Source: Candidatus Desulfosporosinus nitrosoreducens | Lineage (GTDB): Bacteria; Bacillota; Desulfitobacteriia; Desulfitobacteriales; Desulfitobacteriaceae | Assembly (NCBI RefSeq): GCF_030954495.1 | Contig: NZ_JAVHUW010000082.1 | Span: forward strand, 173,108-237,107 | Length of the DNA: 64,000 nucleotides | Direction of reading: 5' to 3' | Part shown: positions 11,966-61,350 of the stretch, one piece after another | How positions within the stretch are numbered: position 1 is the first letter of the stretch | How the letters are laid out: every line of letters starts with the position of its first letter | Made by a program: the position numbers and the translations under genes | Notes under the pieces: generated by a model | The model's database searches: none | Told to the model about the DNA's origin: nothing | Seen by the model: only the letters and a program-made list of their open reading frames with translations

Positions 11966-12140
11966 GAAAAAAACGGAAAGGTCCGCCAATGATCCAAGTT
12001 TATCCGCTGACTAATCCGCTCTAAGACTCCCGCTTCGGCAAGCGGTGAGTTAAGAGCGGGCTAAGTCCCTGGATAAGTGCGACTAAGATTCAGATGGAGT
12101 TAAAACCCCACCTGAATCAAGTCTTCTTTAATTGGAACGT
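11966..12140 (-). repeat. copy 1 of an ~180-nt structured repeat / sRNA candidate (three hairpins plus an intrinsic terminator), transcribed leftward
   Basis: 85-90% identical to 53372-53565 and 61178-61350 in reverse orientation. Ends with cggacctttccg followed by ttttttt on the minus strand. Confidence 0.6.
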
Positions 12141-27730: not shown

Positions 27731-28939
27731 TTAATACTCTTCTCCCGCCTTAAAGTTATAAATCGGTTTAATTACTTTCACAATATCTGCTGTCGGGCCA
27801 ATATGGTTTACGATGTCATCCATAGACTTATAAGCCATTGGACACTCATCCAATGTTTCTTTATTAACTGATGTCGTGTAGACATCCTTCATCTGTTTTT
27901 TAAAGTCCGAAACGGTAAAACTTTGTTTTGCCTTAGTCCTGCTCATGAGCCTGCCAGCACCATGAGGGGCAGAGCAGTTCCAATCCTCATTGCCTTTTCC
28001 TAAACAGATGAGACTACCATCCCTCATATTGATCGGAATTAAAAGTCTTTCTCCTTTCTTTGCGGACACGGCGCCTTTCCGTAAGATCATCGTGTCGGTA
28101 TCAATGTAATTATGAGTCGTAGTGAACTGTTCCGCTACGTCTAATTTCATGCCTTTCACGATCTCAGTAATCATTGCTTTACGGTTTAGCACCGCAAACT
28201 GCTGAACGATTTTCATATCATGAATATAATCCTCAAACAGACTCCCAGTTACATAAGCAAGAGGAAACGGAATTTCGGTCATTACCTGATTTTTAAATTC
28301 CTTTAATGCATTCTCTATTTCTTTATCACGGCCTTCAGACTTTAAGCGGACAATGAGTGCCTCCATATCTGATTTGCCATTATGGTTTAACTGCTTATAC
28401 CCGGCGTCCTGATAATATTTTGCCACCTCAAGTCCTAAGTGACGGCTCCCTGAATGAACTACAACATATAAGCTGCCCGCCTCATCCTTATTAACCTCAA
28501 TAAAATGATTGCCGCCACCCAATGTTCCAATACTTTTTTCTGCTCTGTCCAGTTGCACTGCTTTACGACAACGTAGCCCTGTTAAATCAATTTGCTCATT
28601 ATACCGATGCGGTGTCTTCCGCACCTCAAAACCTGACGGTATGTTCTCATAAATCAACTTATCTAACCTTTGCAGTTCCAGTCGTTTGTTGCTGATTGAG
28701 ATAGTTTCCATACCGCAGCCAATATCTACGCCCACTAAGTTAGGAACCACTTTATCCGTAATGGTCATCGTGGTTCCAATCGTGCAGCCGGCTCCAGCAT
28801 GCACATCCGGCATGACCCTGATTTTGCTTGCTTTTACAAACTCCTGGTTACAAAGGGTCTCAATCTGTGAAGCAGCTCCTTCTTCCAGAATATCGGTATA
28901 CACCTTTGCTATATTAAATTTCCCTTCTATTTGCAACAT
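27731..28939 (-). CDS. rtcB: RNA-splicing ligase RtcB (RtcB2-type, paired with PrfH)
   Basis: 402 aa with conserved RtcB motifs: GVDIGCGM, GGGNHFIEV, and HGAGR near the C-terminus. Sits directly downstream of the prfH homolog. Confidence 0.9.
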   Translation of the reverse strand: MLQIEGKFNIAKVYTDILEEGAASQIETLCNQEFVKASKIRVMPDVHAGAGCTIGTTMTITDKVVPNLVGVDIGCGMETISISNKRLELQRLDKLIYENIPSGFEVRKTPHRYNEQIDLTGLRCRKAVQLDRAEKSIGTLGGGNHFIEVNKDEAGSLYVVVHSGSRHLGLEVAKYYQDAGYKQLNHNGKSDMEALIVRLKSEGRDKEIENALKEFKNQVMTEIPFPLAYVTGSLFEDYIHDMKIVQQFAVLNRKAMITEIVKGMKLDVAEQFTTTHNYIDTDTMILRKGAVSAKKGERLLIPINMRDGSLICLGKGNEDWNCSAPHGAGRLMSRTKAKQSFTVSDFKKQMKDVYTTSVNKETLDECPMAYKSMDDIVNHIGPTADIVKVIKPIYNFKAGEEY

Positions 28940-31445: not shown

Positions 31446-32579
31446 TTAATTAATTGATTTAGCCGAGAGCAAATTATTCAGCTGTTCAAGCAAGCTACCT
31501 CCACCGGTAAGCGATATATTTCCGATCTTATCACAGATTTTTTCTAAAAACTCCAGTTCCTTTAACCGATAAAGGGTTTGGTTTTCTTCCATCAGCTTTG
31601 CCGTATTTAAGAGACTTCTGGTCGAAGCGACTTCCTCTCTGCGGGTAATAACATTGGCTTGGGCTTTCTTTTCCGCAACCAACACGGTATTGAGGATTTC
31701 TTTAATATCGCCGGGCAGAATAATATCTTTTACCCCAACAAAAATGAATTCAACACCATAACTGGAGCTTTTCTCTTGAAATTTTCCAAGGACATAGCTC
31801 CCTACTTCATGTTTCTTTAAAAGAAGATCGTCTAACTTTAAAGATCCAATATACTCTCTTAAAATGAGCTGTAAAAAGATATAAAGCTGTTCCTCAAAGG
31901 ACTTTACTTCAATGACTTTTAGTGGATCGATAATTTTATACTGACAAACAAAATTCAGTCGTAATGTGATCTTGTCTTCCGTCATAATCTCTTGGCCCGT
32001 CATATCCATCTGCTGCTGCCTTAAATCTATATTTTTCACGGCAATATGTACCGGACTTTTCCAAAAGAAATATCTACCAGGTTCCAATATTTTATGAATT
32101 ATATTGTTGTAATAGAGAATCCCTTTTTCGTAGCTTGCAACTTCACAATAAGTCAAAAAACCGGCCAGCATCGGGTTACTATATACTGAAGGATCTATAT
32201 CCGATTGGACTTCGGGATTGCGTATATCTATGATAATAAACTCATGCTTTTTCATGATGTTCCAGAATGCATATTTTCCCGGCTTTAGCACCTCAATAAA
32301 CTTATTATCTTCAAAATGGATCGCAATCTCATAGTCCTGGACATCGATAACTGTAAGTTCCTGCAAAAGTTCATGATCTCCAAGAAACAGATTGATGTTT
32401 TTACCATTCGTCTCAAAAGTTTTGTTAACATCGGATGTCACAACTTGATATTTGATCAATGGATTAAAGTAATGTTTTCCAGGTTTTAAGCATTTCGTAT
32501 AGTTACCGTCTTTGAATAATAAACCTCTTTCATCATTCTTAATGCTTACCTTCATTTTAATCCATCCTTTTCTTAACAA
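31446..32579 (-). CDS. SPFH/band-7 domain protein with a triplicated N-terminal G..F.DG...LkPGKyfF motif, no TM helix
   Basis: C-terminal SPFH pattern (..RLNFVCQYKIIDPLKVI..IGSLKLDDLL..GVEFIFVGVKDIILPGDIKEILNTVLVAEKKAQANVITRREEVAS..). The N-terminus has three repeats (GLLFKDGNYTKCLKPGKHYF / FEDNKFIEVLKPGKYAFW / YYNNIIHKILEPGRYFFW). An alternative start lies at 32555. Confidence 0.6.
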   Translation of the reverse strand: MLRKGWIKMKVSIKNDERGLLFKDGNYTKCLKPGKHYFNPLIKYQVVTSDVNKTFETNGKNINLFLGDHELLQELTVIDVQDYEIAIHFEDNKFIEVLKPGKYAFWNIMKKHEFIIIDIRNPEVQSDIDPSVYSNPMLAGFLTYCEVASYEKGILYYNNIIHKILEPGRYFFWKSPVHIAVKNIDLRQQQMDMTGQEIMTEDKITLRLNFVCQYKIIDPLKVIEVKSFEEQLYIFLQLILREYIGSLKLDDLLLKKHEVGSYVLGKFQEKSSSYGVEFIFVGVKDIILPGDIKEILNTVLVAEKKAQANVITRREEVASTRSLLNTAKLMEENQTLYRLKELEFLEKICDKIGNISLTGGGSLLEQLNNLLSAKSIN

Positions 32580-33102: not shown

Positions 33103-35401
<2,299 letters not shown>

Positions 35402-53371: not shown

Positions 53372-53565
53372 GATAAAGAAGACTTGATTTAGGGTGAAGT
53401 TTTAACTCCCTCTGAATCTTAGTCGCCCTTATCCAGGGACTTAGCCGCTTTTAACTCACCGCTTGCCGAAGCGGGAGTCTTAGAGCGGATCAGTCAGCGG
53501 ATAAAACTCCCTCTGTTAGCAAACAAGTAACCACTCCAGTAACGTGAAGTGGTTACTTGTTTTCA
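53372..53565 (+). repeat. copy 2 of the ~180-nt structured repeat / sRNA candidate. Best-preserved copy, with a strong intrinsic terminator.
   Basis: Hairpin 1: gatttagggtgaagttttaactccctctgaatc. Hairpin 2: agtcgcccttatccagggact. Hairpin 3: gccgcttttaactcaccgcttgccgaagcgggagtcttagagcgg. Terminator: aacaagtaaccact..agtggttacttgtt plus tttt. Confidence 0.65.
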
Positions 53566-53927: not shown

Positions 53928-55328
53928 TTATTCAGCTTCAATACCATAGCGGTGCAATTTAATGTAAAAAGCACGCCTGGAAATTCCCAATGCCTTCATA
54001 GCTTTAGTTCGGTTATTATTGCAAGTTGCCAAGGCAGACAACATAAGTTCTTTTTCCACTCTGCCCATGGTCTCTTTTATATCGTAATATTTATCTTTAC
54101 TTCTTCTCTGGCAGTCATGTTTCGGCAGCATGTTTGCAGGCAAGTGATGGAGTTCTATAGTCATACTGCTACAGACTATACTTGCGTGCTCTAAGACATT
54201 CTGCAATTCCCGGATATTGCCGGGCCAATCGTACTCCCGAAAAAACCTTACTACGTGCGGTGATAATGTAAGCTCATGCCCTACTACTTTACTGTACTGG
54301 TCTAAAAATTTCCGGGCTAAGGTCATGATGTCATCCTTGCGTTCTCTAAGCGGCGGCAGTTTAAGCGGGACAATATTAAGGCGATAATATAAATCCCGCC
54401 GAAATGTCCCATTATCAATCATACTTGCCAAATCTTGATTGGTGGCTGCGATCACCCTAATGTCGACCTTGACAGTTTTGGTTCCGCCAACACGTTCAAA
54501 TTCCCTTTCTTGCAGCACGCGCAGCAACTTTGCCTGCATAGTCATCCCCATATCTCCAATTTCATCCAGGAAAATAGTGCCGCCGTGGGCTAATTCAAAC
54601 TTACCGAGCTTTCCTCCTTTTTTGGCCCCTGTAAATGCCCCTTCTTCATAACCAAACAATTCACTCTCGATCAACTCCTCCGGAATTGCCGCACAATTGA
54701 CTTTGATCATAGGCTTATCTTTACGCCGGCTGCAATTGTGAACGGCATTGGCTAAGACTCCCTTCCCCACACCGCTCTCGCCAAGTATCAGCACCGTACT
54801 GTCAGTTCGTGCCACCTTTGCCGCCAGCAGCAAAGTTTCCTTCAGATGACTGTTTTGCTTTACATAGTCTTTAAAGGACAGTGGAAGCTGTTCCCATTGA
54901 ACTAACTGCTCTTTCAAATAATCAGCTACACCCTTAGATTGCTGCAGTTCCCGGTTTAATTCAACAACTTCGGTTACGTTTTTGAAAATAGAAATACTGG
55001 CAATGATATCCTTGCCACTGAACAGGGGGAATGTATATCCGACAACATTTATTCCCAGAGACTCAAGATAGTAACTTCCCTTACTTGGCTCACCGGTTTG
55101 CAATACTTTAATGGTTGTAGCTCCCGGTTCTATTGTTTTCAACTTGTGCCCTAACACCTTTTCAACCGGAACCCCCAAAATTTTGGCATAGGCTTGATTC
55201 GCATATACAATAGTTGTATTCGAGTCTATGACTAAAACTACATCATGAATGTTATCCAGGATTTTAAATAACATGTCACAATCCCATTGAGGAAAGTAAG
55301 ATGTTGTGATAGCATGAGTTCCGATCAT
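53928..55328 (-). CDS. sigma-54-dependent transcriptional activator (PAS sensor, AAA+ sigma-54 interaction domain, Fis-type HTH)
   Basis: Walker [22 protein letters not shown] motif (EEGAFTGA), and a C-terminal HTH. Confidence 0.9.
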
Positions 55329-55977: not shown

Positions 55978-57168
55978 TTAGTTAAGGTTCTCAACAATTG
56001 TAGAAATCCCTTGACCTCCCCCTATACACATGGTCGCTAAACCATAACGCTTTCCGGTGCGTTTTAACTCATTGATTAATTTGATCAAGATGATAGCCCC
56101 TGTGGCGCCTAAAGGATGTCCCAAAGCAATCGCACCGCCGTTGACATTCGTCCGGGCAATGTCCAAACCCAGTTCTTTGATTACGGCCAGGGACTGGGCC
56201 GCAAAGGCTTCATTCAGTTCAATTAAATCAATCTGCTCTAAAGTGAGGCCTGCCATCCGCAGAGCAGCCGCAGATGCGGGCACTGGTCCAATGCCCATAA
56301 TTTGCGGCGGCACGCCTTTGGCTCCAATACCGAGCACCCGAACCAGAGGCTTCAGACCATATTCTTTCGCCTTTGCCGCTGTGGTCAGAATTAAAACGGC
56401 GGCAGCGTCGTTCCGTCCGCTGGAATTCCCCGCCGTGACTGTACCGCCTTCCTTGAAGACAGCAGGCAATTTGGCCAGCTGAGCCAGGCTGGTTTCCCTG
56501 GGATGTTCGTCCGCGGCAAAAATCACGCTTTCCCTTTTTCCTTTAACTTCATAAGGAACGATTTCTGCTTTGAACAGCCCTTCTTTAAGGGCACGCAAGG
56601 CCCGTTCCTGGCTGATCAAGGCAAATTCATCCTGCTCCTGACGGCTGATCTTGTATTTTTCCGCTAGATTCTCGGCTGTTAATCCCATGTTCAAATATCC
56701 ATAACGCTCTTGGGGCTGACAACGTGGCTGGCTTTCCGTATTGGAATCCAAAATCTCCGCATTGCCCATACGAAAGCCATAACGCGCGTGCCGCAGATAA
56801 TAGGGCGCAGTGCTCATGCTTTCCGCTCCGCCGGCCATGACGATTTCCTGGGTTCCTGCCCAAATGGACTGGACAGCGTCATTGACGGCCGTCAGGGCAG
56901 AGCCGCATTGACGGTGCACCGTATAAGCCGGTACCGCCTCGGACATATTGGCCCTCAGCCAAGCGAGCCGGGCTAAATTGGGATTATCCCCGCTTTGCTT
57001 GGTATGGCCAAAAATCACTTCATCAATAGACGTGTCCGGAATTCCGCTGCGGGCAATGGCCTCCTTGATGACTTGAGCGGCCAGATAGTCCGCCTCAACA
57101 TCCTTCAGAGTCCCGCCAACCCTGCCGATGGCTGTACGAACTCCGGCAACGATAACCGCTTCGTTCAC
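55978..57168 (-). CDS. acetyl-CoA C-acetyltransferase (thiolase II)
   Basis: Contains AGVRTAIGR, active-site Cys context (HRQCGSALTAV), and C-terminal [17 protein letters not shown] and CIGGGQG. Confidence 0.9.
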   Translation of the reverse strand: MNEAVIVAGVRTAIGRVGGTLKDVEADYLAAQVIKEAIARSGIPDTSIDEVIFGHTKQSGDNPNLARLAWLRANMSEAVPAYTVHRQCGSALTAVNDAVQSIWAGTQEIVMAGGAESMSTAPYYLRHARYGFRMGNAEILDSNTESQPRCQPQERYGYLNMGLTAENLAEKYKISRQEQDEFALISQERALRALKEGLFKAEIVPYEVKGKRESVIFAADEHPRETSLAQLAKLPAVFKEGGTVTAGNSSGRNDAAAVLILTTAAKAKEYGLKPLVRVLGIGAKGVPPQIMGIGPVPASAAALRMAGLTLEQIDLIELNEAFAAQSLAVIKELGLDIARTNVNGGAIALGHPLGATGAIILIKLINELKRTGKRYGLATMCIGGGQGISTIVENLN

Positions 57169-57184
57169 GATTCTCCCTCCTTGC

Positions 57185-58342
57185 TTATAGCGCGTATTCT
57201 TTTCTTAACTGGGCGGCAATAATATTACGCTGAATTTCCGAAGTCCCTTCATAAATCCGGGCGATTCGGGCATCACGGTAATAACGTTCTACTTCACACT
57301 CCCGCATGTATCCCATACCGCCGTGGATCTGAACTGCTAAATCCGCGACCCGGCCATAAGCCTCCGAACCAAATGTTTTGACAATGGCCGCTTCTTTGAT
57401 GACCTTTTTCCCCGCGTCAATTTTCCGGGCAACATCATAGGTCAAACTGCGCAAAGCTTCAATGTCTATGGACATGTTTGCTAAATAATGCTGGATGATC
57501 TGGTTTTCAAAAATTGGCTTGCCAAATTGCACCCTCTGTAAAGCATATTTAGCACTGATTTCCAGGAGCTTCTCGCAGGACCCGAGATTGCGGGCGGCCA
57601 GTCCCGCCCGGCCGTTGGCCAGGATTCTCAAGGCGTTGACATACCCCTGCCCTAGCTCGCCTAAAACGTTTTCCACAGGTACCTCGCAGTCCTCAAAGAT
57701 AAGTTCCGCAGTTTGAGAGCCGTGCAAGCCCATTTTTTTCTCATATTTGCCGACTGAAAATCCTTTAAAGCCACGCTCTACGAGAAAGGAGGTAATTCCT
57801 TTGCTTCCTTTGCTCTTGTCCGTTACCGCCATGACCGTGAAAATATCGGCAATATCACCGTTTGTAATAAATTGCTTGGTTCCGTTCAGGATATAGCGCT
57901 CCCCTTTGAGAACGGCTGTCGTCTTCAGGCTGGCGGGATCGGAACCGGCCGATGCTTCAGTAAGGGCAAAGGCCCCGATCAATTGTCCGGCAGCTATTTT
58001 AGGCAGATAACGTTTCTTCTGCTCTTGATTGCCGCACTCAACAATACCGACACTCCCAATACCGTTGTGGCAGCCGATAATTGAAGTAAAGCAATTCGGT
58101 CCCCGGCCTAATTCCTCATAAATCATGACTTTGCCGACCATTCCCGCACCCAGCCCGTCGTACTCTTGAGGCGTACTTAGCCCAAACAAACCGATTTCCG
58201 CAGCCTTGTCAAGCAAATTCCGGGGCACGGCGTCCTCCTCCTCCATTTGTTGAGCAAGAGGTTCAACCTCCTTGGCGATAAAGCTGCGCACGGTTTGTCT
58301 TATAATATTAAGTTCTTCCGCCGTTATTTGGCTTGCTTCCAT
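57185..58342 (-). CDS. acyl-CoA dehydrogenase (butyryl-CoA-dehydrogenase-like)
   Basis: ACAD N/M/C domains and a catalytic-Glu context (YEGTSEIQRNII). Confidence 0.9.
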   Translation of the reverse strand: MEASQITAEELNIIRQTVRSFIAKEVEPLAQQMEEEDAVPRNLLDKAAEIGLFGLSTPQEYDGLGAGMVGKVMIYEELGRGPNCFTSIIGCHNGIGSVGIVECGNQEQKKRYLPKIAAGQLIGAFALTEASAGSDPASLKTTAVLKGERYILNGTKQFITNGDIADIFTVMAVTDKSKGSKGITSFLVERGFKGFSVGKYEKKMGLHGSQTAELIFEDCEVPVENVLGELGQGYVNALRILANGRAGLAARNLGSCEKLLEISAKYALQRVQFGKPIFENQIIQHYLANMSIDIEALRSLTYDVARKIDAGKKVIKEAAIVKTFGSEAYGRVADLAVQIHGGMGYMRECEVERYYRDARIARIYEGTSEIQRNIIAAQLRKEYAL

Positions 58343-58422
58343 TGCAGTTCCTCCTACCATGATTTTTCAGACAACCTGTGAAAGAAATTCCGGCCTGCCC
58401 CTCAAGGCTGTGCGCTTATTTT

Positions 58423-58668
58423 TCAGGGTATTCGTAAAATCCTTTTCCGGTTTTTCGTCCCCATTCTTTTAGCAACTCTTTCCGGCAGATAGGCCGCTGC
58501 AAATTGCTCGGCCTTTTGTAAAACGTCTTTGTCTACATCCGTGCATTTCACTTTAAAACCGGCTAAAGCTGCGGATAAGGCAATCTGGTGCCCCATATTC
58601 CCTGCCCCGACAATGCAAATATTAGCAATGCCGCCTTTTTCCATCACAATCCCTCCCAGCAGTTTCAA
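58423..58668 (-). pseudogene. 3-hydroxyacyl-CoA dehydrogenase (hbd) N-terminal fragment
   Basis: Contains the Rossmann motif IVGAGNMGHQIA. The ORF stops after about 65 relevant residues, 63 nt before the ACAD start. Confidence 0.6.
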
Positions 58669-59843
58669 TGCGATACTCTTTCCAAGATAGTAGCGATACC
58701 TTGCCCGCCGCCAATACAGGCTGTGATCAAACCGAAGCGGACCTCTCTCCGACTCATCTCATACACTAACTTGGTGGTCAGAATCGCTCCGGTAGCCGCT
58801 ATTGGATGACCGTGAGCAATCGCCCCGCCGTTAACATTCACCTTTTCCATATTAAAATGCAGATCCCGGTCCACGGCTAAAACCTGGGCGGCAAAAGCTT
58901 CGTTTATTTCGATGAGATCCATATCGTCTAAAGTAAGGCCGGCTTGAGCCAAGGCTTTTCTTGTAGCGGGTACCGGTCCGATTCCCATGATATTGGGGTC
59001 TACACCGGCAACAGCGAAGGTGCGGATTTTGGCCATAGCTTTCAGACCCAGCGCCTTGGCTTTATCCGCTGACATGACAAGCACTGCGGCTGCGGCATCA
59101 TTTAAACCGGAACTGTTTCCCGCCGTTACGGTTCCGCCGGCTTTAAAGGCAGGCGGCAGTTTGCTTAATCCTTCCAGCGTTGTTTGGGGACGGGGGTGTT
59201 CGTCACTGTCCAAAACAAGCGTTTTACCTTTCCCCAGGGGAACAGTCAGGGGGACAATCTGACTCTTATACAAACCTGCCGCCATAGCTTTGCCCATTTT
59301 TTGCTGGCTGAGCAGAGAGAACTCATCCTGTTCCCGGCGGCTGATGCCATATTTTTCAGCTAAGTTCTCGGCAGTAATTCCCATGGGCGGATTGCCAATT
59401 TCAGCGGGTGACAATTGAAAGCCTGCCCGAAACTTCGGACCGGTTTTGCTGAAAAATTCCATATGCTCCATAACATACGGTTTCAGCGAGCAGCTTTCCG
59501 TGCCTCCGGCAACATAAATGTCGCCCATCCCGGCCATGACAGCCTGTGCCGCTAAATTGACGGCATTAAGGCCGGAGCCGCACTGGCGGTCAACGGTAAG
59601 CCCCGGGATTTCCATAGGCAAACCGGCCTTGAGGGCACATAACCGCGCCATATTGCCGCCGGCATTCAGGCAATTGCCGAAAATGACATCGCTTATCTCT
59701 CCGGGGTCCAGGTCTATTCGTTTAAGCACTTCTTTGATAACGTCCGCTCCGTAGTTTTCCGGGGGAACCTTGCCGAGAGCACCGCCGGCGCGACCTATCG
59801 GAGTTCTCACTGCCGCAACAATAACAGCTTCCTTAAGCATCAT
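58665..59843 (-). CDS. acetyl-CoA C-acetyltransferase (thiolase II), second copy
   Basis: Contains [40 protein letters not shown] and CIGGGQG. Confidence 0.9.
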
Positions 59844-59867
59844 TGTGACCTCCTAATTTCACCTAGT

Positions 59868-60068
59868 TTACTCGTAAGTATAGTAGCCTTTTCCGGTCTT
59901 CCTGCCCCATTCTCCCTTAGTGAATTTCTCGACAACCAATGGTGACAGCTTGTCTTTGGGATCACGGCTGTTTTGATAACGTTCCCTTGCCGAATAGTAG
60001 GAAAGGTCAATACCTGTCAGATCCATGAGACGGAAAGGTCCCATCGGTTGTCCCAGGGCGTCCTGCAT
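59868..60068 (-). pseudogene. 3-hydroxyacyl-CoA dehydrogenase (hbd) C-terminal fragment
   Basis: GPFRLMDLTGIDLSYY...GEWGRKTGKGYYTYE matches the Hbd C-terminal dimerisation domain. No N-terminal domain lies upstream. Confidence 0.6.
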
Positions 60069-61177: not shown

Positions 61178-61350
61178 ATAAAGAGGACTTGATTCAGGTG
61201 GAGTTTTAACTCCATTTGAATCTTAGTCGCCCTTAGCCAGGGACTTCGCCGCTCTTAACTCACCGCTTGCCGCAGCAGGAGTCTTAGAGCGGCTTAGTCA
61301 GCGGATAAAAACACGTTTCACTCCCAACAATGAAGCGGCGGCTTTTGCTT
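61178..61350 (+). repeat. copy 3 of the ~180-nt structured repeat / sRNA candidate (slightly degenerate terminal stem)
   Basis: Aligns to copy 2 along its length (gattcaggtggagttttaactccatttgaatcttagtcgcccttagccagggacttcgccgctcttaactcaccgcttgccgcagcaggagtcttagagcggcttagtcagcggataaa). The following hairpin plus T-run is weak. Confidence 0.6.

Follow-up and report, generated by a model that had tools for sequence, protein, structure and literature searches.

A structured, non-coding interspersed repeat in Candidatus Desulfosporosinus nitrosoreducens, probably related to the apparent bcr1 of Bacillus

We analyzed three similar intergenic loci in a 64,000-nucleotide stretch of Candidatus Desulfosporosinus nitrosoreducens (NCBI RefSeq assembly GCF_030954495.1, contig NZ_JAVHUW010000082.1, positions 173,108 to 237,107; hereafter the window). 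Most probably, these are copies of a non-coding, non-autonomous interspersed repeat of ~130 bp, which falls into one superfamily with a Bacillus cereus-group repeat that appears to be bcr1. A preliminary description of the window had offered two readings, namely a multicopy small RNA (sRNA) gene family and a transcribed repeat resembling the miniature transposable elements with inverted repeats (MITEs), comparable to bcr1, RUP or BOX. Homology and dispersal uphold the comparison with mobile repeats, whereas the sRNA family does not hold as the nature of the family: the wide spread of the element in Clostridia and Bacilli argues that it is not a private sRNA gene family with its own terminators.

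Window copies and their relatives

The core of the repeat, taken from T(A)AAG to GGAT, spans 128–129 nt in the window, with pairwise identities of 93%, 92% and 90% and a mean column identity of 94% in the alignment of the three copies. Their existence as described earlier is thus borne out, at a smaller size and a higher identity than the ~180 nt and 85–90% that had been claimed. Copy 1 lies on the reverse strand at 11999–12132 (core 12130–12002), while copies 2 and 3 lie on the forward strand at 53373–53505 (core 53374–53502) and 61178–61309 (core 61179–61306), respectively. The cores of copies 2 and 3 are bounded by AT on the 5' side and AAA on the 3' side; copy 1 shares the AAA and shows TT where the others have AT. 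When the flanks are included in the alignment, similarity begins at ...ATAAAGA(A/G)GACTTGATT and ends at ...CAGCGGAT-AAA, with the sequence outside these limits being entirely different in the three loci. A 38-mer of the core occurs three times in the window against an expectation of 0. A covariance model built from the three window copies (R1) scores them at 162.6, 153.5 and 155.5 bits for copies 1, 2 and 3, and neither this model nor an nhmmer profile of 82 family members found a further copy or fragment in the window.

Relatives of the element are plentiful elsewhere. A scan of metagenome contigs with a gapped motif from the base of hairpin 1, the first of the two hairpins described below, returned at least 120 stretches. 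R1 then recovered about 100 copies among the matches listed, of which 82 had E ≤ 1e-11; several contigs hold more than one copy, including a 107-kb contig (Ga0123334_1000087) with three loci. Plasmids of Clostridium beijerinckii and C. tetani gave partial matches in a blastn search, and R1 aligns these copies over their full length (E about 1e-12 to 1e-14) with compensated changes in the stems. The sequence search for relatives, an avenue already pointed to in the preliminary description, thus located copies on Clostridium and Bacillus plasmids as well as in metagenomes. Motif scans of viral contigs yielded 0 and 1 loci, and a search of the phage collection returned no match. The absence of a known RNA family, as had been noted from the sequence alone, was confirmed: Rfam 15 gave 0 matches over the whole window at gathering thresholds, and E-value scans, run on copy 2 (E ≤ 10) as well as on one Bacillus and one expanded copy, gave only chance hairpin matches far below threshold.

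The genomic settings of these copies are those of a dispersed element. Among the family copies listed, 222 flanking open reading frames (ORFs) fall into 195 clusters, and the flanking gene is on the same strand as the copy in 108 cases and on the opposite strand in 112, i.e., the orientation is random. Of 96 copies, 95 are intergenic and a single one lies within a long ORF. Transposases or recombinases are not enriched among the 766 ORFs of the family loci, and none were found in the window either. Two plasmid copies, those of C. tetani (L011) and C. beijerinckii (L010), are near small genes of the DUF1659/DUF2922 (and YvrJ) type, neighbors that do not recur among the metagenome loci. The C. 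tetani copy (L011 3944–4082, plasmid NC_022778) is situated ~3.5 kb from the tetanus toxin gene tetX.

The family further displays tandem and nested copies, truncated forms, and variants with internal deletions or expansions. Variants of 62 nt consist of no more than hairpin 1 plus the 3' end; in others, structured modules of 20 to 130 nt are inserted into the loops of hairpin 2. One such module of ~110 nt, AAGTGAGCCTTGG...GTTAACGAGAT, sits within hairpin 2 as a nested insert of the apical loop, starting with AAGTGA after AT and ending with GAT (L035 1936–2082+, L051 1825–1943- and downstream, L104 3140–3238-, L088 11823–11918- and L055 5279–5351-). Judging from these ends, it may be a related element that follows the same insertion rule. 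A second nested module of ~130 nt, AAGCAGATAAGTGAAAGTCCAAATC...GAGGAGTTTCA, occupies the same loop (L017 3043-, L019 1607+, L103 630+, L105 2570+, L028, L057 7892+ and L010 near 6163(-)). In addition, CTTAT is followed by one to three 20-nt mini-hairpins, ACCCTCAAGGGGCACAATGT, in L024, L095, L025, L040 and L048.

The link to Bacillus emerged from a second blastn search that used a low-GC family member as the query and reached Bacillus plasmids. R1 aligns the copies from B. thuringiensis, B. mycoides and Bacillus sp. over their full length, with E-values of 3e-11 to 1e-8. Conversely, a covariance model built from three Bacillus copies only (R2) matches all three window copies (E = 1.3e-12, 2.4e-10 and 5.4e-9 for copies 1, 2 and 3) and other clostridial-type copies with E-values down to 3e-20. 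As R1 and R2 each find the other set, homology is supported in both directions. The Bacillus element, ATAAAGTGAAAC...GGGATAAAT, is about 157 nt long and was found in 57 plasmid records, 55 of them from Bacillus (mostly the B. cereus group), with at least 40 places in one 5.5-Mb record and 7 on one B. mycoides plasmid. One record, NZ_CP093325.1, entered in PLSDB as 'plasmid p1' of Bacillus sp. N5-665, is 5.5 Mb long with 25 annotated features and is evidently a chromosome; being filed as a plasmid, it inflates the plasmid counts of the Bacillus repeat.

In every respect described, these properties come close to those of bcr1, the commonest repeat of the B. cereus group, which is ~155 bp long, is present in 11–130 copies with most in B. 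mycoides, is flanked by 5-bp TTTAT direct repeats that are possibly duplicated, folds into two independent stem-loops with compensatory changes, is transcribed, often in untranslated regions, and has been described as absent outside the B. cereus group (PMC6542083, PMC3184786, PMC3446304, PMC6199540). The mechanism of its mobility is unknown (PMC3184786, PMC6542083, PMC6199540). By description, i.e., by length, host range, copy number, end motif and fold, the Bacillus copies appear to be bcr1, though they could be bcr2 or bcr3. For this Bacillus repeat, too, Rfam contains no model. Since homologs occur in Desulfosporosinus and on Clostridium plasmids, the window element is best seen as a relative in a wider superfamily and not as bcr1 in the strict sense.

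Fold and covariation

The three window copies are predicted to fold with energies of -52 to -64 kcal/mol, corresponding to z-scores of -4.5 to -7.8 relative to shuffled sequence. The predicted minimum free energy (MFE) fold has two hairpins instead of the three proposed earlier. In hairpin 1, GACU/AGUC closes a 14-bp stem, whereas hairpin 2 is one long imperfect hairpin that comprises UUAUCC/GGAUAA, GACU/AGUC, CCGCUCU/AGAGCGG, ACUC/GAGU and the apical CCGCUU-GCCG-AAGCGG. In copy 1 (reverse strand), the MFE fold places hairpin 1 at 12081–12123, with GACU/AGUC followed by the 14-bp stem GAUUCAGGUGGGGU/ACUCCAUCUGAAUC, and hairpin 2 at 12000–12076. On the forward strand, hairpin 1 of copy 2 (53381–53424) is degenerate, with one inserted G and mismatches, and is followed by hairpin 2 at 53429–53504; copy 3 has hairpin 1 at 61186–61228 and hairpin 2 at 61233–61308.

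Covariation was counted in a model-based alignment of 82 family copies (A5), with the caveat that this alignment is fitted to the model. In it, 93.1% of the cells at paired positions hold standard pairs, compared to 31–42% when the partners are slid by 1–3 columns and 84% in column shuffles. Two-sided changes are seen in 35 of the 45 pairs, a number that 0 of 500 shuffles reached. Helix 1 is paired in 94.6% of cases across the family with two-sided changes in 11 of its 18 pairs, and helices 2–6 are 88–96% paired with two-sided changes in 24 of 27, such that all six helices are supported, including the long-range ones. Examples of compensation include the change of UUAUCC/GGAUAA to UUAUCU/AGAUAA, and of GACU/AGUC to GUC/GAC or AGC/GCU. 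For those helices that it aligns, a separate MAFFT alignment, independent of the model, reveals these compensations as well. The base of hairpin 1 likewise varies with compensation in the Bacillus and C. tetani copies.

Of the three hairpins originally drawn, hairpin 1 (GAUUCAG/CUGAAUC) and the 44-nt hairpin survive and covary across the family. The one drawn between them, AGUC(G)CCC/GGGACU, does not: its inner pairs form in only 34 of 80 and 7 of 76 members, and its outer four pairs compete with better-supported helices. Instead, the family keeps UUAUCC/GGAUAA and GACU/AGUC, which close the long 3' hairpin. Further, the differences among the three window copies that had been read as preserving base pairs amount only to changes of G-C or A-U to G-U, with two-sided compensation being confined to the wider family.

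Which strand is folded, and in which form, can be approached from the wobble pairs. In the stems of the family, G-U/U-G cells outnumber A-C/C-A cells by 123 to 76, or by 78 to 58 when one special pair is set aside; this surplus is modest and a weak test of strand. The special pair is in hairpin 1 (A5 columns 24/46, corresponding to the G12107/U12093 region of copy 1), where G-U was found 45 times, A-C 18 times, A-U 8 times and G-C 0 times. Its retention as a wobble in different subfamilies suggests that it serves recognition and not simply the stability of the stem. The strand read in the preliminary description folds better as RNA in 68 of the 82 copies, which are not independent of each other, with mean energies of -60.3 versus -54.8 kcal/mol. 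From these energies and pair counts, this is more likely to be the folded strand, with mixed evidence as to whether it folds as RNA or as single-stranded DNA.

Element ends, insertion sites and possible means of spread

Across the family, the composition upstream of the element is that of the background until an AT (about 96–100% conserved), which is followed by (A/C)AA(G/T); downstream, conservation stops after GGAT plus AAA (87, 89 and 76% A). In the window, copies 2 and 3 have ATAAAG at the 5' end and copy 1 has TTAAAG, while the 3' end of copies 2 and 3 reads GGATAAA. The conserved unit contains no promoter, terminator or ORF. It is also devoid of terminal inverted repeats, with no match between ATAAAGAAGACTTGA at the 5' end and the reverse complement of the 3' end, TTTATCCGATGACTAA; the only inverted repeats are the arms of the internal hairpins.

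Comparisons of filled and empty sites reveal how the element sits in its target. Two loci with flanks that are 90% identical, one filled (L033) and one empty (L057), show a clean insertion at TTTA^AAAAC; the pair fits the entry of TCAAG...GGAT with nothing duplicated. In a second pair with 78% identity (L015 and L113), a newer copy lies at the ...AT^AAAC end of an older relic, a configuration that fits AT on both sides. Thus, the element arrives as a discrete insertion at an A/T-rich site, with A or AT followed by AAA. The junction is fixed to within one or two bases, and a real 5-bp duplication is unlikely. Moreover, one large subfamily always has ATCAAG at the 5' end and GATAAA at the 3' end, and so a duplicated 5-bp target cannot by itself account for the two 'ATAAA' motifs. 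The search for empty sites of two Bacillus plasmid copies returned only filled relatives. The loci of the nearest homologs of the sigma-54 activator gene beside copy 2 are non-syntenic and lack the element, and the permease beside copy 1 has no close homolog besides itself. A scan of genome contigs for CTTAACTCACCGCTTGCCG, a pattern that included a base variable in copy 2, produced five chance matches only.

The target-site duplication suggested for copy 2 has a different explanation. One occurrence of AACTCCCTCTG is inside hairpin 1 of this copy (53404–53414), and the other comes just after the element (53505–53515) and reads like part of a second copy. The longer segment AACTCCCTCTGTTAG at 53505–53519 on the forward strand repeats the 3' arm of the copy's own hairpin 1 (53404–53422) minus AATC. 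From its sequence, it seems to be what is left of a second, abutting copy with the same private mutations. Abutting copies are known elsewhere in the family (L070, L015 and L069), where the two units share A(T/C)AAA.

We propose that the element would spread in trans: an enzyme whose gene lies elsewhere in the genome would recognize, as single strands, the hairpins together with the short sequences at the ends. As a tentative guess, and the one we prefer, this could be a single-strand transposase of the HUH type, either IS200/IS605-like or IS91/Helitron-like; the lack of inverted repeats, the little or no target duplication, the structured ends and the A/T-rich insertion motif favor such an enzyme. 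Close behind as a conjecture is a site-specific recombinase acting on an ATAAA/TTTAT core, an older proposal from the bcr1 literature. We also entertain a more speculative and rather unlikely idea, in which bcr1 and the clostridial elements would constitute a Bacillota-wide, structured superfamily without terminal inverted repeats or transposase, moving by a mechanism as yet undescribed for bacterial repeats: a structure-specific single-strand enzyme or recombinase might act at A(T)^AAA without real target duplication, or the conserved two-hairpin fold itself might serve as an RNA or single-stranded DNA cofactor of its transposition. Any effect on the host would be incidental; where a copy is transcribed, its very stable fold could change the stability or processing of the transcript.

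Several observations weigh against this picture. No autonomous partner or transposase was found among the family loci or in the window, and hence mobility is deduced from the pattern of the copies. The count of three copies for Desulfosporosinus covers the 64-kb window only. The bcr1 label of the Bacillus copies appears justified by description, not by alignment to a consensus. The conservation at the base of hairpin 1 is partly by construction, because the metagenome copies were retrieved with a motif from it. Copy 1 has both promoter- and terminator-like sites nearby and copy 3 a promoter-like site, and therefore discrete transcripts are possible. With respect to the IS200/IS605 guess in particular, the family shows no orientation bias relative to gene direction, its two hairpins do not resemble one another, none of the family copies has a TnpA gene nearby, and the conserved flank (AAA) is at the 3' and not the 5' side of the better-folding strand.

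In the window, all three copies are antisense to their neighboring genes. Copy 1 is between genes for an RpiR-type regulator and a xanthine/uracil permease, and copy 2 between an ORF of 227 aa with no known function and the gene for the sigma-54 activator (53928–55328). Copy 3 is flanked by genes assigned through Pfam to an enoyl-CoA hydratase and an acetyl-CoA hydrolase/transferase on the opposite strand. This agrees with the initial statement that copies 2 and 3 are antisense to their flanking genes and that copy 3 lies within the sigma-54 acyl-CoA gene string of the opposite strand. The string of acyl-CoA dehydrogenase/thiolase genes (56000–60000) has 51% G+C compared to 34–42% in most of the remaining window. 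The cumulative GC skew reaches its maximum at ~27 kb of the window, where the gene strand switches from + on the left to - on the right; this looks like a meeting point of converging replication directions or an inversion boundary. Genes for an RtcB RNA ligase (27731–28939(-)), an SPFH/Band-7 protein (31446–32579(-)) and a WYL/WCX-domain regulator (34097–35380(-)) are close together and possibly form an RNA-repair or defense-related cluster.

Alternative readings and comparison with known elements

Among the alternatives, the first is that the loci are multicopy genes for trans-acting sRNAs, each an independent unit of ~180 nt with its own intrinsic terminator, and that the fold is that of a functional sRNA. 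We consider this improbable. The very stable and covarying fold, the better folding of the top strand as RNA in most copies with its excess of G-U over A-C, and the reported transcription of bcr1 would all suit such genes, as would the sites that surround the window copies. Downstream of copy 2, a strong hairpin followed by TTTTC (53519–53564, forward strand, -18.5 kcal/mol) is terminator-like; downstream of copy 1 is a short hairpin of 6 pairs followed by T7 (11967–11987, reverse strand), and copy 3 has only a weak terminator-like site. Upstream of copy 1, at a distance of 50 nt, is a promoter-like site (10/12), and another (9/12) directly precedes copy 3. However, both of these hairpins are outside the repeat unit, similarity ends at GGAT-AAA, and of 116 distinct family copies only 17 are followed by a terminator-like site within 100 nt, compared to 8 of 116 in the antisense control, so that terminators do not qualify as part of the element as was originally thought. 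The number of promoter-like sites near the window copies is likewise at the level of shuffled sequence, and conservation is sharply limited to the element, with no conserved -35/-10 or terminator. We infer that these sites belong to the host loci and not to the repeat. Moreover, the G-U surplus is modest for an RNA-only constraint, and about 100 copies with tandem, nested, truncated and deleted forms present the pattern of a mobile repeat, not of sRNA paralogs.

An alternative that we deem similarly improbable, and rank after the sRNA genes, is that the fold takes part in its own mobility, either as a guide or scaffold RNA for an enzyme encoded elsewhere or as an RNA intermediate copied back at T-rich nicks. 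Omega RNA and bridge RNA provide models for a guide or scaffold RNA of a recombinase or nuclease. As in functional RNAs, the core helices persist even where the peripheral loops have taken up large structured insertions; the special pair of hairpin 1 is kept as a wobble; fold energy favors the top strand; and insertion beside an A run, with the element ending in ...GGAT before AAA, would suit priming on a T run. Against this, genes for TnpB, IscB, IS110 or a reverse transcriptase neither adjoin any of the copies nor are enriched in the loci, and there is no Rfam match to omega-RNA or other known families. The roughly 5 conserved flank bases are too few for a programmed target, and the copies show neither a poly-A tail nor a series of 5' truncations.

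We regard it as very improbable that the copies are cis-acting regulatory RNAs (leaders, riboswitches or attenuators) or transcript-stabilizing elements selected at each locus. The fold is stable and some copies are near gene starts (e.g., L054) or terminators, but the flanking genes are unrelated, the orientation to the neighbors is random, copies 2 and 3 are antisense to both of theirs, and no riboswitch family matches. Finally, a decayed local duplication private to this Desulfosporosinus region, which the count of only three copies in the available sequence of this genome might suggest, is refuted by more than 100 homologous copies with different flanks in other organisms and plasmids, and it can practically be discounted.

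If the link between the window element and the Bacillus repeat holds, a repeat regarded as peculiar to the B. cereus group becomes a broad family that reaches Desulfosporosinus, Clostridium plasmids and many uncultured Bacillota. Its alignment would then define the invariant ends, the wobble pair and the dispensable parts of the element, and a comparison of genomes with and without it could reveal the enzyme that moves it. There is also a warning for annotation: with z-scores to -7.8 and strong covariation, such repeats mimic candidates for structured RNAs and sRNAs, and they will recur as false 'novel sRNA families' in scans of Firmicutes genomes.

As for known element classes, riboswitches or leaders, the omega-RNA of TnpB, the bridge RNA of IS110, retrons and group II fragments were each considered and put aside, there being no partner gene and no model match. 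The classical MITEs, such as RUP, Correia/NEMIS, ERIC and BOX, resemble the window element in being short, non-coding, multi-copy, intergenic and strongly folding; both have probably been moved in trans and are often co-transcribed with their neighbors. The window element differs from them in the absence of terminal inverted repeats and of a clear target-site duplication beyond at most AT, and no related insertion sequence was found for it. The palindrome-associated transposable elements (PATEs), miniature elements derived from IS200/IS605, and the repetitive extragenic palindromes with their associated tyrosine transposases (REP/RAYT) share with it the lack of inverted repeats, the little or no target duplication, the subterminal hairpins and the A/T-rich insertion motif. 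In contrast to these, its two hairpins are dissimilar, its family has no orientation bias by gene (replication) direction, neither a TnpA nor a RAYT gene is near its copies, and its hairpin 2, of about 76 nt, has a much more complex build than the hairpins to which transposases bind.

The closest counterpart is bcr1. Both elements are small (~130–157 bp), non-coding, intergenic, interspersed and multi-copy; ATAAA (TTTAT on the other strand) bounds each end of both; and both have two independent long stem-loops held by compensatory changes, with neither having a known transposase. Their hosts differ, in that the present one is a clostridial sulfate reducer whereas bcr1 has been described from the B. 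cereus group only. The window unit of 128–129 nt is shorter than the ~157 nt of the Bacillus copies because the apical part of hairpin 2 is shorter, and the stem of hairpin 1 reads GAUUCAG/CUGAAUC in the window versus UAAUCAG/CUGAUUA in Bacillus, a compensated change. Lastly, the single well-conserved empty site in the present family suggests that there is no 5-bp duplication, in contrast to the possibly duplicated TTTAT of the literature on bcr1.

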